Below are positions 3,618-48,108 of a stretch of DNA of 64,000 nucleotides, piece after piece (the stretch's first letter is position 1; the number at the start of each line of letters is the position of its first letter). Under the pieces are notes generated by a model. The model was not told the DNA's origin. It worked only from the letters and a program-made list of their open reading frames with translations, and ran no database searches. The position numbers were made by a program, and so were the translations under genes. Origin of the DNA: a virus (lineage: Duplodnaviria > Caudoviricetes); IMG/VR virus record IMGVR_UViG_3300033463_000038, positions 32,001 through 96,000 of that record, one strand, 5' to 3'.

Positions 3618-3663
3618 AGTTATGGTCCTTGTTGAAGTTAGCTCTTTAGTTATTTACATAGTA

Positions 3664-3692
3664 AATATAAGAAAATCCAGAGAAACTCTAAA
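3664..3692 (-). promoter_or_regulatory. early promoter
   Basis: TTTAGA-N17-TATATT with A-rich UP region; leader ends ACAAGGACCATAACTATG. Confidence 0.8.
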
Positions 3693-3725
3693 CCCCAAAT
3701 CAAGATTTTTCTGATTTTTTTGAAT

Positions 3726-5584: not shown

Positions 5585-5615
5585 TTTAGTGGTCCTTGTT
5601 TGTTTCTACATGTAT

Positions 5616-5644
5616 AATATAGGTAAATCCAAGAGAAATCTAAA
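5616..5644 (-). promoter_or_regulatory. early promoter
   Basis: TTTAGA-N17-TATATT; ACAAGGACCA leader at 5590-5599. Confidence 0.8.
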
Positions 5645-5676
5645 CCCCAAAATCAAGATTTTTCTTAATTTTTATA

Positions 5677-5705
5677 TTTAGATTTCTCCGAAAAATTCCT
5701 ATATT
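5677..5705 (+). promoter_or_regulatory. early promoter (divergent)
   Basis: TTTAGA-N17-TATATT; ACAAGGACCA leader at 5724-5733. Confidence 0.8.
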
Positions 5706-5736
5706 ATTACTGTAAAACCGTCAACAAGGACCAATT

Positions 5737-6342: not shown

Positions 6343-7115
6343 ATGAACTCGCCGAGGATCTCGCAACGGAATTGATCCTTGTCGAAGTTCTTCTTCGCAG
6401 TCTCTAGCCATTCCTTTGAACGCTCAGGACGGCAGTTCCACTTCACTCGATGCGGAACCCACGAGTTCTTTTCATCTAGCGCATGTTCGTATATCTTGTA
6501 GAACGTAGTCTCTTTCTTATGCGGAGTCGATAGGAATATCGTCTGCGCATCTTTGCGAGCCATCATGACTGGCAGGATGCACTTCATCAGCTCTTCGAAG
6601 TCGAAGTCGTCGATATACGCTGCTTCGTCGATCACGAAGAGATCGATCGTGCGTCCATGAAGCATAGCAGAGTTCGCAGAGCAGGAGAAAATTCTGCTGT
6701 TGTTCTCGAACTGGATGATCTCCTTTCGGTTAAGCTTCGTATCGAGACGCATATACTCGGGCAGCTTTATGAGGATCTCTTTGACACGCTGCAAGATCTC
6801 GTTAGCCTGAGCCCATTTTCTAGACATCAAGCACACGTTACGATCATTGTGGAATAGAGCATACCATAGCGCATAGGCTGCGATCAAAGTCGTCTTACCA
6901 GACTGTCTTGGCGCAATTAGAACGTGTCCTCGCTTTGCGTTCGGATCGAAAGCCGTTTCCTTGAAAGACTTTAGAACCTTCTTCTGCCATCTGAACGGCT
7001 TGAACTCTTGGTCGCCCTCTGGGCCTAGAATCGTGCAAAACTTGAGAAATCTCGCCGGATTCTCACTGCACTTGTGGATTGTTTTCACTTGATTGAATGT
7101 GAGTTTCAAATTCAT
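6339..7115 (-). CDS. terminase large-subunit-like ATPase domain only (T4 gp17 N-terminal-like)
   Basis: Walker A PRQSGKTT, Walker B FVIDEAA, coupling motif LSTP, ends at FRCE; 258 aa with no nuclease domain. Confidence 0.8.
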   Translation of the reverse strand: MNLKLTFNQVKTIHKCSENPARFLKFCTILGPEGDQEFKPFRWQKKVLKSFKETAFDPNAKRGHVLIAPRQSGKTTLIAAYALWYALFHNDRNVCLMSRKWAQANEILQRVKEILIKLPEYMRLDTKLNRKEIIQFENNSRIFSCSANSAMLHGRTIDLFVIDEAAYIDDFDFEELMKCILPVMMARKDAQTIFLSTPHKKETTFYKIYEHALDEKNSWVPHRVKWNCRPERSKEWLETAKKNFDKDQFRCEILGEFI

Positions 7116-27545: not shown

Positions 27546-27598
27546 TTCGACAGTAAATATAAAATTCCTATTTTTACGCAAATTTCGAGCTTTCTGGG

Positions 27599-27627
27599 TT
27601 TAGAAAATCGTCAAAATTTGCTATATT
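27599..27627 (+). promoter_or_regulatory. early promoter
   Basis: TTTAGA-N17-TATATT. Confidence 0.75.
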
Positions 27628-27657
27628 GTATATGTAAACTTTGAAAGGAACTCAACT

Positions 27658-31590: not shown

Positions 31591-32955
31591 ATGGAAGATC
31601 AAGCTAGAAGATTAAAGGAGCTTAAATCGTCGCTAGACCGCATTGGCGATCTGGTTCTCTGGAATACGGAGAAATTAGGCACAATTATCGCTTCTGAAAG
31701 CAAAGACGAGCAAAAATCGATGAATCTCGTATATGGCAACATCGTCGACAGCATAAAGTCAGAGACGGAGCCTTTGAGAAACATAGTCATCGACCTGAAG
31801 TACTACTTCGATCGTCAAAATAACGAGATCACAGCGATTCTCAAGAATTCTTCTGTAATCATAGATACTGTCAAAGCTTCTGTAAAGAACGAAGATGAGC
31901 GTAACGCTGTCGAAGCGGATATCGAACGCAAGAACTCATTAGTTACGACAAGTCCAGTCGTAGAGAGCGTAGGAAAAGTCCAATCTACGGGTCTCGATCC
32001 GGAGCTGCAAAACAAGTTGAGCTTAGTCCTCGATTCTGCTGCTGGATTCTTCAAAAGCTGGGGAAATCCCGTCGAAGTTGGCGCAGCTCTCGCACTTCCA
32101 GTCGTCGGAGCTCTCGGAGTCGCTTTCGGCGGAGTCGTTCTGACCGTCAATAAGCTAGTTGACGGCATAACTGACATTATCGGAAAGGTGACTGACATGC
32201 CTTCTGGTATCGCTACAGCAGTAGGCGGAGCAGTCACTGGAGTTTTCAAAGCAACATCGAATCCGACAAATATTGACGGATCGACGCTGAATTCTGCGAT
32301 ACTGATAGGCACTAAGCCGATATTGGATCAACTGACAAATATTGACGGATCAATCAAGAACGTCAAGATCGAAAATGCATCTCTAGGAGTAAATCTTGAT
32401 CCAGTGTTGAGAGCTATCGACAACGTATCTTCATCGATCTCCTCTTCTATAGGTAATTGGAGTTTCTCTGCTCCAGTCGCTTATCCCGTAGTCGAAGAGC
32501 CGAAAGATGACATATCGTTCAAGACAAGGGTCATATCACTGCTAGAGAATCCAGTTCCAGTCGAAGTCATCGTACGTGAAGATTTGAGAAACTCTAATGG
32601 ACAGCAGATTCGCGAAGACGTGTTCGCAGATGCAGTCCGTCCTCTAGTCAGAAACCAAGAAGCGATGTACAATATGCTCTCTAGCAGTCTCAGAGAGCTC
32701 AGTCAGGCAGTCGCTACATTGAGCGTTCCTCCAGAAGTCGGAAGAACAGATCGTGTCACACGACTGAACGACAACGTCAACATGACTGTCAATGACACAG
32801 CTATCGAGTTGATATTGACAGAGACTAGAACGATTGCACAAGCGATCGCTGGATTCCGTTCCGATTTTGGAACTTTCAGTACAAATTGGACTGCTGCTAA
32901 CTCCGAAAAGCGTCAAGAGCGTACCGGAGGCGAAACTGTCCTGTCTGGAGATTGA
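31591..32955 (+). CDS. hypothetical tail/baseplate protein (tape-measure or hub-like)
   Basis: TATAAATA at 31553; helical with Gly/Ala/Val hydrophobic segment. Confidence 0.5.
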   Translation: MEDQARRLKELKSSLDRIGDLVLWNTEKLGTIIASESKDEQKSMNLVYGNIVDSIKSETEPLRNIVIDLKYYFDRQNNEITAILKNSSVIIDTVKASVKNEDERNAVEADIERKNSLVTTSPVVESVGKVQSTGLDPELQNKLSLVLDSAAGFFKSWGNPVEVGAALALPVVGALGVAFGGVVLTVNKLVDGITDIIGKVTDMPSGIATAVGGAVTGVFKATSNPTNIDGSTLNSAILIGTKPILDQLTNIDGSIKNVKIENASLGVNLDPVLRAIDNVSSSISSSIGNWSFSAPVAYPVVEEPKDDISFKTRVISLLENPVPVEVIVREDLRNSNGQQIREDVFADAVRPLVRNQEAMYNMLSSSLRELSQAVATLSVPPEVGRTDRVTRLNDNVNMTVNDTAIELILTETRTIAQAIAGFRSDFGTFSTNWTAANSEKRQERTGGETVLSGD

Positions 32956-44091: not shown

Positions 44092-44243
44092 TTGAGTTTC
44101 TCCGGTTAAAGTTCTTTTACATATACAATATAAGTATTTTCAAGAGAAATCTAAACAGAAAATTGAGATTTTCTCATTTTTTCTGAATATGAGACGAAAT
44201 ATGCCATTATGCTTAAATTGAGTATATTTGACGTTTGAGCTAT

Positions 44244-44380
44244 TATAAATAACAGGACGAACTGCTGAGAAGTCGAAATAGTCTATATTTTAAACAAAGA
44301 GTTTACGATACGACCCATTGGTGCATCTTTCTTAGCAGTTCCTTTGCACTAGTGGGTCGTATTTCTTTAGGAACTGCTGA
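44244..44380 (+). promoter_or_regulatory. late promoter plus structured 5' leader (switchable pseudoknot)
   Basis: TATAAATA 44244-44251; 18-bp stem 44308-44325/44345-44362; loop complementary to 44259-44272 and to RBS 44369-44380. Confidence 0.7.
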
Positions 44381-45832
44381 ATGGAAAAGTACACAGAATA
44401 TCTCCAATACTCGCTATGGATCAGCGATGTGAAGACGAAGGAGATAAGAGTCGGAAAGAATGGCCGGACAAAATATGATCACGAGTGCATCAGGGGAATT
44501 TGGAACTCTTCTGGATCTCACGGGATCTTTCCAGTCGGAGTGAAGCGCTGCACGTTCGAAGACTACATCGAACTTATCACGACAGGACACTCAGTCAAGA
44601 GAATCCAGAAGATCGAAAATGAAGTGTTCACGTCGAGATTTCTCTTTATCGATCTAGACAACGACAACGGAGAGAACGTGACTGAATATGACCTGGAAGC
44701 GTTGAAACTGATCACTAACAACCGCATCGTGTACTTCCCGTCGACTTCAGGAACGCCCTTCCGGTGGCACTTGTACATCGAGACCGCGAACCCCATGTTC
44801 GTTGTCAAGGATCTGAAACGAGAGACGTTCAAGATCATATCCGAGCTAGAGTCTGTCTGTAAAAGAAAAGTTACATGTGACTCGAAGTGCTACCAGAACT
44901 GGCATCAAGTCTGCTACGGAATGCCGCAGAAAGAGCACTACAAGCTCTCGATCCCCGATGGAACTGAGTTCTTCTGTCACCAGATTCTGAAGCCGAAAGA
45001 CGACAAAGAGACAGTCATCGTCCAAAAGTTCACAGAGTACGTTGAGTTCAGGAGGAAGTCGAATGATAAAGAACAGAAAGAGGTGAGAATCGTACCATAC
45101 AACTCCAAGATGCTAGCGAGAGCTCTCGGAATCGGAGAGCTCCAAGACAAGCCGTTCTCGATCTACCCGCCGTTCACGTACAAGAATCGCGTCAAGGGAG
45201 ACTGGCACATCCGCGAGGGAAACCGGTACAAGACAGCTTGCAACTGGATCCTACACTTAGTCCCGCAGTGGTACAAGTGCAACCTCAAGTACGACATGGG
45301 ATACTCTGTCGAAGATCTAGTTCACACCCTCAAGTGTCTCTGCAGGACTAACTTCGCCAGCTTCGAGACGTTCGACTGGAACTCAGCTCAGCGAGCTCTG
45401 TTCAGCAAGATAAACGCTCTCGATGGAAAGTCGTGGGAAGAGATCGAAGCCGAATCCGAAGCTAAGATCCGCACGTACAGGACCCAGAACTACACTTGGG
45501 ATCTAATGATGAAGCTCAAAGACGAGTTCGCGTACGACGACTGGACGATCGCTTTCCAAGACCGAAAACAGCTCAGAGAAGCGCTGAGAAAGTACAAAGT
45601 CTCGATCAAGACAGTGAAGAAGTATCTCCACGAAGAGGCGGGATTCGACATCGTCATTAAGAACGAGAAGAGAGCAGAGCGATCCGACAAGGGAAAGACG
45701 AAGTTCGACTTCACGAGATACCCTCAAAACGAGAAAGGACAATACTTGATCCCGTCAAGAGAGATCACCTCATACATAAGAAACTTAGCTTCGAAGATGA
45801 AAATAAAGATAAAGTCGGTTAGAGAATGTTAG
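44381..45832 (+). CDS. AEP primase-polymerase-like replication initiator (AEP + PriCT-like + HTH-like)
   Basis: FLFIDLDN (motif I), STSG...RWHLY (motif II), CD.KC..WHQ.CYG (motif III), EGNRY, basic C-terminus RAERSDKGK. Confidence 0.6.
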   Translation: MEKYTEYLQYSLWISDVKTKEIRVGKNGRTKYDHECIRGIWNSSGSHGIFPVGVKRCTFEDYIELITTGHSVKRIQKIENEVFTSRFLFIDLDNDNGENVTEYDLEALKLITNNRIVYFPSTSGTPFRWHLYIETANPMFVVKDLKRETFKIISELESVCKRKVTCDSKCYQNWHQVCYGMPQKEHYKLSIPDGTEFFCHQILKPKDDKETVIVQKFTEYVEFRRKSNDKEQKEVRIVPYNSKMLARALGIGELQDKPFSIYPPFTYKNRVKGDWHIREGNRYKTACNWILHLVPQWYKCNLKYDMGYSVEDLVHTLKCLCRTNFASFETFDWNSAQRALFSKINALDGKSWEEIEAESEAKIRTYRTQNYTWDLMMKLKDEFAYDDWTIAFQDRKQLREALRKYKVSIKTVKKYLHEEAGFDIVIKNEKRAERSDKGKTKFDFTRYPQNEKGQYLIPSREITSYIRNLASKMKIKIKSVREC

Positions 45833-45859
45833 AGAAGGCGAACGAAGTGAGCAAAATAG

Positions 45860-45959
45860 CGTTTGATTTGAATGTGATTTTGTCACATTTTAATCAAACG
45901 TGTTGTTCCCATTTCTCTCTTCTTGAATATATTTTGTCCAGATTAAAATGTGACAAAAT
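45860..45959. repeat. nested inverted repeats, candidate origin
   Basis: Perfect 19-bp IR 45877-45895/45941-45959 and near-perfect hairpin 45860-45900. Confidence 0.8.
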
Positions 45960-46035
45960 TCTGTAAAGGAAACTTTACACTATATCAAGTTCAAAAAATG
46001 AGCTCTATAAATAAACTCAACAAGGAGAATCAACT

Positions 46036-46236
46036 ATGACTCGATTCGTTATCACTGGAAAAGTATCAAATCCGCTAGCGGGATCTTCGCTCAACGAAGA
46101 TCTCGTCATCTCTGGTCGTCTGGACTCGAAGCTCGCACAGCTCAACCTGGAAGTCGAGAAGATCGAGACTGTCGGAGACGAAGTCACTTACTACCTGAAA
46201 GAATCGACATCTAGACCTAAGCTCCTGTGCGACTAA
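46036..46236 (+). CDS. hypothetical late protein
   Basis: TATAAATA at 46006, AAGGAG SD. Confidence 0.7.
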   Translation: MTRFVITGKVSNPLAGSSLNEDLVISGRLDSKLAQLNLEVEKIETVGDEVTYYLKESTSRPKLLCD

Positions 46237-47974: not shown

Positions 47975-48108
47975 AGTTTTGGTCCTTTTTGTTAAGTTTA
48001 CATGAGTAATATAGGTATTTTCATGAGAAATCTAAACCCATAAACACGAATTTTTATGCTGCAAATAGTTTCTAAATTAACTATTGAAAAGCGCTAAAAC
48101 GAGAATTT

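Follow-up and report, generated by a model that had tools for sequence, protein, structure and literature searches.

T4-type phages, in the textbook account, fire their origins from R-loops and then turn to recombination-dependent replication, with a DnaG-type primase. In RSF1010 the primase RepB′ acts together with a separate helicase, RepA, and an iteron-binding protein, RepC, and the origin (ori) of ColE2 is short and asymmetric. The ColE2 Rep protein consists of an archaeo-eukaryotic primase (AEP) domain followed by PriCT-1 and helix-turn-helix (HTH) domains, the last two of which unwind the DNA (PMC5862659). In T4 itself, oriF(uvsY) and oriG(34) are units of ~100 bp that combine an activator-box promoter with an unwinding element, and their transcript can stay hybridised (PMC3016281). 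Here we analyse a 64,000-nucleotide stretch of Caudoviricetes DNA (positions 32,001 to 96,000 of IMG/VR record IMGVR_UViG_3300033463_000038), hereafter the window, in which the gene for a 483-residue protein stands between a structured leader and a group of nested inverted repeats. Its predicted domain order, the lack of a helicase domain and a private site adjacent to the gene match it to initiator primases such as ColE2 Rep, and we propose that it is an initiator primase that acts site-specifically, at an origin or priming site of its own, a reading to which we give an even chance.

That the open reading frame (ORF) encodes an AEP, although a very divergent one, is highly probable on the basis of fold and motifs. 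The motifs on which the original prediction of an AEP primase was built are all present in the translation: FIDLD at residues 89–93, PSTSG..RWH at 120–130, EGNR at 279–282 and a basic tail. Across a conservation set of 20 sequences, reaching down to ~22% identity, the fixed residues are G69, R74, D91, D93, S123, H130, D167, G180, Q183 and three N-terminal positions. The acidic DxD of motif I, within FIDLD, is kept in at least 90% of the set (D91 and D93), as are S123 and H130 of motif II, and D167 of motif III is invariant. As read from these residues, a D-x-D, a small residue followed by His, and an Asp is the catalytic pattern of archaeo-eukaryotic primases. D91, D93, S123, H130 and D167 are the presumed catalytic positions, assigned from order and strand placement without superposition, and the protein is predicted to synthesise primers.

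Structural comparison agrees with this assignment. The model has a mean pLDDT of 83 for the full protein and 92 for the N-domain alone. PDB matches spanning the whole N-domain are all AEPs, namely HP0184, the LigD polymerase domain, Prim-PolC, RepB′, CAPP and the ASFV and S-2L PrimPols (Foldseek E 2e-3 to 5e-2, probability up to 0.97–0.99), and VIA-align against PDB AEPs gives Z of 5.5–6.5 over ~140 residues. In the BFVD viral structure library 31 matches fall at E ≤ 1e-3, many of them over ~400 columns; the top match is ‘Primase, C-terminal 2’ (1.8e-7, probability 1.0), followed by VirE-N and phage/plasmid primases. The language-model neighbours of residues 1–215 are RepB_primase, AEP-TOTE and BT4734-like clusters. 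Among named clusters, those of RepB_primase lie nearest to the N-domain, and RSF1010 RepB′ is the top Foldseek PDB match of the full model (3h20, E 3e-3), although a weak one (Z 5.3–5.5). The AEP fold is thus borne out by structure-library and PDB matches of the model and by the conserved catalytic motifs.

Sequence comparison places the protein far from anything named. Pfam, PHROGs and PDB sequence searches, run both with the protein and with its family profile, returned no meaningful match, and phmmer and profile searches against PDB chains gave nothing. There were no matches for the protein by blastn and tblastn against cultured phages, and a remote-homolog search in IMG/VR found none. When the N-domain was searched by tblastn against 72,556 plasmids, no relevant match was returned at E ≤ 10. 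The kinship to ColE2-type Reps that had been suggested therefore finds no support at the level of sequence: unlike those proteins, the phage protein has no detectable homology to them (tblastn against plasmids; Pfam). It would represent a new AEP family, missed by current profile libraries.

In the model, the AEP domain is likely followed by a PriCT-like region and a DNA-binding C-terminus. Language-model neighbours of residues 236–483 are ‘replication protein’, HTH and PriCT_1 clusters, the last with a score of 0.89 by features. EGNR is present, and structure matches to PriCT-bearing primases cover ~390–435 columns. The model also contains a strand-helix-helix-strand arrangement at residues 389–426, after which the conserved tail follows. 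A PriCT-like region and a DNA-binding tail, as first suggested, are probable from structure matches and language-model neighbours, with no Pfam match to PriCT. The predicted order of an AEP, a helical PriCT-like region and a DNA-binding C-terminus, without a helicase domain, would be that of ColE2-P9 Rep, RepE/RepS and PrimHYQ. On our reading of the sequences, the C-terminal part apparently confers specificity and changes hands as a module, as in the ColE2-type Reps; unlike in RSF1010, the recognition module apparently sits on the primase itself.

The AEP protein is not the only primase of this phage. Its contig also holds genes for a DnaG-type primase resembling gp61 (phrog_47, E 1e-45) and for a DnaB_C/gp41-type helicase, and a 247,923-bp relative likewise carries a gp61-like primase and a gp41-type helicase. 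Since the phage has a gp61-like DnaG primase, the AEP protein is not the general primase but a specialised extra one. This, together with the co-variation of box cores with the protein tail described below, is new support for the originally proposed initiator module. The setting differs from that of ColE2, being a lytic-type, T4-like phage genome of 250 kb with its own PolB, gp41 and gp61. Jumbo phages related to T4 have been described as DnaG users (PMC7824862). A 2016 survey of double-stranded DNA viruses reports AEP and DnaG together in one only, the far T4-like Rhodothermus phage RM378 (PMC4889955). The present phage can be likened to RM378, by description only, as a distant T4-type phage with both enzymes; the text consulted describes no linked cis elements or leader.

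The candidate cis site lies directly downstream of the gene, as in ColE2, and is here both conserved and unique. The nested inverted repeats that had been noted there are confirmed (Table 1). The X/Y arms (45860–77/45883–900) are 18 nt long and 89% complementary, and the Y/Z arms (45877–95/45941–59) are 19 nt long and 100% complementary, with a 45-nt spacer. The Y/Z 19-mer has a chance expectation of 0.02 and is observed twice, and perfect inverted repeats of at least 14 nt within 90 nt number only 5 in the whole 119.7-kb contig. Both strands of the palindrome fold far better than shuffled sequences (z −4.7, −6.5), the minus-strand RNA having a dG of −23.4 and z −6.5. In most units, and in unit types that otherwise differ, no sequence at the edge nearest the gene is better conserved than the purine box GAACGAAGTGAGC.

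The architecture recurs among relatives. Downstream of the gene, an inverted repeat with arms of 11–26 nt around a CT-rich run and an AT-rich core is retained in 17 of 19 loci, over protein identities of 39–92%; the other two have weaker versions, and the arm sequences differ widely among the 19. Homopurine/homopyrimidine runs of at least 13 occur at ~0.35 per kb, so their constant presence in the 45-nt spacer is not due to chance. In the complete 248-kb relative, a 16-nt box occurs three times, always within 100 nt of the AEP gene, and the arms of a second unit are confined to the AEP locus. The combination box-N17-TATATT is found in that genome at the AEP locus only: two copies lie behind the gene and point towards it, and two lie ahead of it in the sense orientation. 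An Rfam search assigned no family, giving near matches only (a plant microRNA precursor model on the long hairpin, both strands), and a terminator scan called no canonical terminator at the long hairpin. We also considered that a purine-rich minus-strand RNA might target the leader loop; this candidate was dropped, as the complementarity is partial in the window and absent in L005-type loci.

Compared with known sites, the element combines features of several. It differs from the ColE2 ori in its palindromic form, its three boxes and its polypyrimidine tract. Like ssiA and ssiB of RSF1010, it can form hairpins on both strands, here through the long palindrome. At the sequence level it resembles T4 oriF and oriG in being a unit of ~100 bp with a factor-type box at −30/−35 and a sigma70-type −10 element, and the hybrid would tend to be stable, with the transcript rich in purines and the template in pyrimidines. 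It differs from oriF and oriG in that its box is private to the locus rather than a genome-wide MotA box, in that a purine-rich transcript region and a structured palindrome lie downstream instead of a plain A+T-rich unwinding element, and in that a dedicated AEP is encoded next to it. The element may be an origin or priming site private to the AEP protein.

A link between protein and element comes from natural swaps that alter the tail and the boxes jointly. Up to approximately codon 425, the genes of L032 and L009 share at least 90% identity; this falls to 57–72% in the tail codons, and the two are near-identical again past the stop. In the unit behind the gene the differences are confined to the three box cores (GTCACA to ATTACC, with complements), while the 43-nt spacer and the flanks are identical. 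All of the L032-specific substitutions (14/14) fall in residues 428–479 and none in residues 1–427. The rule was also predictive: an L032-like tail (P0009) predicted ATTACC boxes, which were found (L037), and a window-like tail (P0007) predicted GTCACA boxes, also found (L038). L001 and L002 are 87–92% identical to the window in the AEP domain and 43–46% in the C-terminal half, and they have yet another box type. We consider it rather probable, from these co-varying sequences, that the C-terminal part recognises the box sequence-specifically, and the swaps would allow particular bases to be assigned to the part of the protein likely to read them.

Upstream of the gene, the predicted switchable leader holds up well. 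The hairpin loop can pair either with element A at 44259–71 (13 bp, one G-U) or with element C at 44369–80, where AGGA lies just 5′ of the AUG (12 bp). The leader is present in 12 loci in five sequence versions, in each of which both pairings persist. Across the 12 loci the stem and loop co-vary, as do the 5′ element, the loop and the Shine-Dalgarno (SD) region. Since a MAFFT alignment of the leaders was structure-inconsistent across sequence types, duplex energies were computed for each sequence and compared with shuffles: the dG ranges from −16 to −29 kcal/mol for A:B and from −15 to −20 kcal/mol for B:C, and few, if any, of 200 shuffles match these energies. In all five leader types element A starts 4–7 nt past the late box, at the extreme 5′ end of the predicted late transcript, whose +1 we take, from T4, to be near 44257. 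Nested folding gives −38.5 kcal/mol for the hairpin, −33.7 for the A:B state and −30.3 for the B:C state; because the hairpin is the nested ground state, the alternatives would be loop pseudoknots, which the folding programs used do not score. A longer early transcript hiding decoy A, as a further candidate, was unsupported by folding from the sigma70-like site at 44201–28.

As judged from these conserved pairings, the leader is a real RNA device acting in cis, in which the loop can take up either a decoy or the ribosome-binding site. Control of translation by RNA, as in ColE2, had been expected. The structured leader is in keeping with this, but an antisense RNA is not supported: a promoter scan found no antisense promoter facing the leader, and a cis-acting three-part switch in the phage stands in place of the antisense RNA control of ColE2. 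The gene and the downstream repeats are found together among the relatives, while the leader is missing in about a third of the loci; in six relatives lacking it, other box- or promoter-like elements are in place.

Against an expectation of 0.9, the window has 16 copies of the late box TATAAATA, most of them upstream of plus-strand genes; this enrichment makes a T4-type late promoter system plausible. A late promoter in front of an initiator had been remarked upon as a puzzle; this is softened by the sigma70-like candidate ~20 nt upstream and by other promoters in relatives. A TATATT −10-like element lies at the same relative place in most relatives. A recurrent early-promoter layout is also seen, with GTTTAGA, a 17-nt spacer and TATATT, then ATGTAAA and a ACAAGGACCA ribosome site; its copy at 44127–44155 on the minus strand drives a divergent 133-aa signal-peptide gene adjoining the AEP gene.

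Table 1 Features of the AEP locus, with positions in the window (a dot marks features given without strand).
Feature	Position	Strand	Remarks
Candidate early promoters of recurrent layout	44127–44155 (−), 47975–48108 (−), 3618–3725, 5585–5736, 27582–27650		
Sigma70-like promoter candidate	44201..44228	+	ATGCCA-16-TATATT, ~20 nt upstream of late box; putative function
T4-type late promoter box	44244..44251	+	TATAAATA
Leader element A	44259..44271	+	5′ decoy, complementary to loop B
Leader hairpin	44308..44362	+	18-bp stem 44308–25/44345–62, 19-nt loop with element B 44329–44343
Leader element C	44369..44383	+	Shine-Dalgarno AGGA and AUG, complementary to loop B
AEP candidate ORF	44381..45832	+	ATG start, 483 aa
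AEP catalytic domain	44381..45025	+	Residues 1–215; D91, D93, S123, H130, D167
PriCT-like helical region	45128..45535	+	~Residues 250–385, with EGNR 279–282 and QWYKCNLKY motif; approximate boundaries
HTH-like strand-helix-helix-strand unit	45536..45670	+	~Residues 386–430; putative, from model secondary structure and HTH neighbours
Conserved basic tail module	45701..45829	+	Residues 441–483; candidate specificity determinant
Long imperfect palindrome	45833..45923	.	~90 nt, directly past stop codon; X/Y hairpin at apex
Purine box GAACGAAGTGAGC	45840–45852		Pairs with CT tract 45912–45924
Box copy X	45860..45877	.	Degenerate, inverted relative to Y
Box copy Y	45877..45895	.	Core GTCACA
Promoter-like GTCACA-17-TATATT	45926..45954	-	Z as first hexamer; faces gene, then polypurine run
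Box copy Z	45941..45959	.	Perfect inverted copy of Y
Late promoter of next gene (66 aa)	46006..46013	+	Right boundary of module

The record containing the window is a viral contig of 119.7 kb with an estimated completeness of 47%. To the left of the AEP gene lie large late genes (634, 1769 and 239 aa) without a family match and a short divergent early gene, and to the right are a B-family DNA polymerase, a UvsW-type helicase and a tail sheath. The polymerase is 25–28% identical to gp43 of cultured T4-like cyanophages, which makes the phage a very distant member of the T4 superfamily. Twenty-four close relatives of the 483-aa protein were found, at 39–92% identity and every one metagenomic, and an exhaustive search added more distant ones at 27–34% identity. 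The carriers of the AEP gene are an uncultured clade of distant T4-like phages of ~250 kb. One of them, G001 (loci L018–L030; 247,923 bp; AEP 92% identical), has ends that overlap by 246 nt, and is therefore a circular, near-complete assembly and a useful reference genome for the clade.

Gene order, like the downstream repeats, is retained among the relatives. In L001–L007, L009–L011 and L032–L041, with the exception of L040, a giant gene is followed by a gene of ~235 aa, the AEP gene and the polymerase, and in some loci a minus-strand gene intervenes between the ~235-aa gene and the AEP gene. In the relatives’ loci the AEP gene is followed by a non-coding gap of 180–780 nt and a gene of ~66 aa, and then onward to the DNA polymerase. 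The AEP gene is single-copy in each of the three viral records searched. In L040 (1415–2851), unlike in the other loci, the AEP gene and its unit stand after genes of 66, 169 and 74 aa, directly before the polymerase; this is a local rearrangement, either of the cassette or of the small genes. The 66-aa gene (46036–46236, MTRF...KLLCD in the window) is highly conserved across relatives, has no family match, and in every case has a TATAAATA box of its own together with an AAGGAG ribosome site. L001, from a 247-kb relative in another sample, carries an IS605 OrfB/TnpB-type gene (1–1017), ~9 kb ahead of its AEP gene. Nothing was found for or against the plasmid-like carrier state that had been raised.

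L042 (6001–7689) and L043–L047 hold more distant relatives of the protein, at 28–34% identity, in Fibrobacterales genomes, beside tyrosine integrases, and full-length relatives are present in 5 of 151 sampled Fibrobacterales genomes. The distant homolog P0029 has a 62%-identical relative with two tyrosine integrases beside it, on a contig that was binned to a Fibrobacter genome. In the Fibrobacterales downstream regions a CT-rich stretch and a CAATTATT core again lie between inverted arms, in an imperfect repeat (75%). These occurrences fit the rule that AEPs of such a type live on mobile elements (PMC5862659), and they hint at a Fibrobacterales host for the phage and a mobile-element source for the gene.

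Put together as a mechanism, the proposed initiator primase would work as follows. Its tail would recognise a short box (core GTCACA in the window) present three times in the ~100-bp element behind the gene, and the box-bound protein would open the adjacent AT-rich and polypyrimidine stretch. The AEP would then make, or help to make, the first primer, with DNA synthesis starting leftward on the CT-rich strand, after which the phage helicase, the gp61 primase and the polymerase would take over. Production of the protein would be switched by the leader, off when the loop pairs with the ribosome-binding site and on when it pairs with the decoy at the 5′ end of the late transcript. DNA binding, priming and origin function of the module are thus all predicted activities.

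Several observations weigh against this proposal. Expression from a late promoter is odd for an initiator, and the downstream unit also fits a promoter with a structured RNA. PDB fold scores are modest (Z < 8), and matches to the RRM-like subdomain are equally high: its core (residues 84–177) reaches Z 6–7 to many unrelated ferredoxin-like folds among PDB representatives (VIA-align), so Z by itself does not single out AEPs. None of the 20 family members has a Pfam match. Upstream boxes of the ATTACC type accompany four different tails, and several genomes have second or third units of other box types. In L004 (~7010–7100) a third unit is near-identical to the GTCACA unit of the window, and its own AEP is only 49% identical and has another tail. 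Units appear to have been exchanged between distant relatives, and, as tail and unit are adjacent, recombinational linkage explains part of their co-variation. Cumulative GC skew, a check suggested earlier, shows no turn at the locus in either the 119.7-kb contig or the 248-kb relative; since the skew tracks gene orientation, it is uninformative and speaks neither for nor against an origin.

Given these points, other explanations must be weighed. The boxes could be regulatory elements and not an origin, serving as operators that occupy the −35 position in two locus-specific promoters. The gene-facing promoter would make a structured, purine-rich antisense or small RNA of ~70–90 nt, the other would drive the AEP gene in some relatives, and expression levels would depend on the AEP tail or on another factor, with the primase at work elsewhere. 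This is possible, though well short of even. It is favoured by the promoter-like call on GTCACA-17-TATATT, by the recurrence, as read by eye, of box-N15–17-TATA(T/A)T with purines after it in almost every unit type, by the same architecture upstream of the gene in L009, L032, L033 and others, and by the strong fold of the minus-strand RNA. It sits less well with the lack of a canonical terminator and of an Rfam family in the scans described above, and with a complementarity between purine tract and leader that does not hold across loci. The conserved polypyrimidine template and AT-rich core suit a priming or unwinding site equally, and promoters would be compatible with an origin, since T4 oriF and oriG are themselves promoters.

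It is unlikely that the gene and its flanking inverted elements form a selfish mobile replicon cassette, derived from a host mobile element and not serving phage replication. The integrase-linked relatives in Fibrobacterales would fit such a cassette, as would the inverted element copies on both sides of the gene in several relatives, the varying number of units (1 to 3), their exchange between distant relatives, and the different place of the L040 cassette among small genes. However, every relative found has the gene in the same neighbourhood, between giant structural gene and DNA polymerase, over 39–92% identity, the catalytic residues are conserved, and the phage loci have neither a transposase nor an integrase next to the gene. 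Neither operators nor a mobile cassette would exclude an origin. We regard as very unlikely a general repair, repriming or anti-defence primase-polymerase whose hairpins are ordinary terminators or RNA-stability elements. PrimPol-type AEPs do work in damage tolerance (PMC4538821), and a long hairpin does stand immediately past the stop codon; yet the terminator scan does not call that hairpin, the boxes are unique to the locus in 248 kb and co-vary with the protein tail, and the C-terminal DNA-recognition modules favour a site-specific enzyme.

A wider consequence, which we hold as rather doubtful, is that this is a private origin system whose tail/box specificity pair is swapped among co-circulating phages, amounting to replicon specificity groups in a lytic T4-like lineage. 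If so, each initiator would fire its own origin alone during mixed infection, and orphan units, such as the GTCACA unit of L004, could exploit the initiator of a co-infecting relative. A box-dependent, promoter-like site would give rise to a purine-rich primer or R-loop, begun or extended by the AEP, so that plasmid-type and T4-type initiation would be joined in one element. The leader would add a compact case of a single loop that selects either a decoy or a ribosome-binding site. Should the proposed initiator primase prove true, a conserved plasmid-type enzyme with a recognisable site would give this clade of phages a defined, testable origin.

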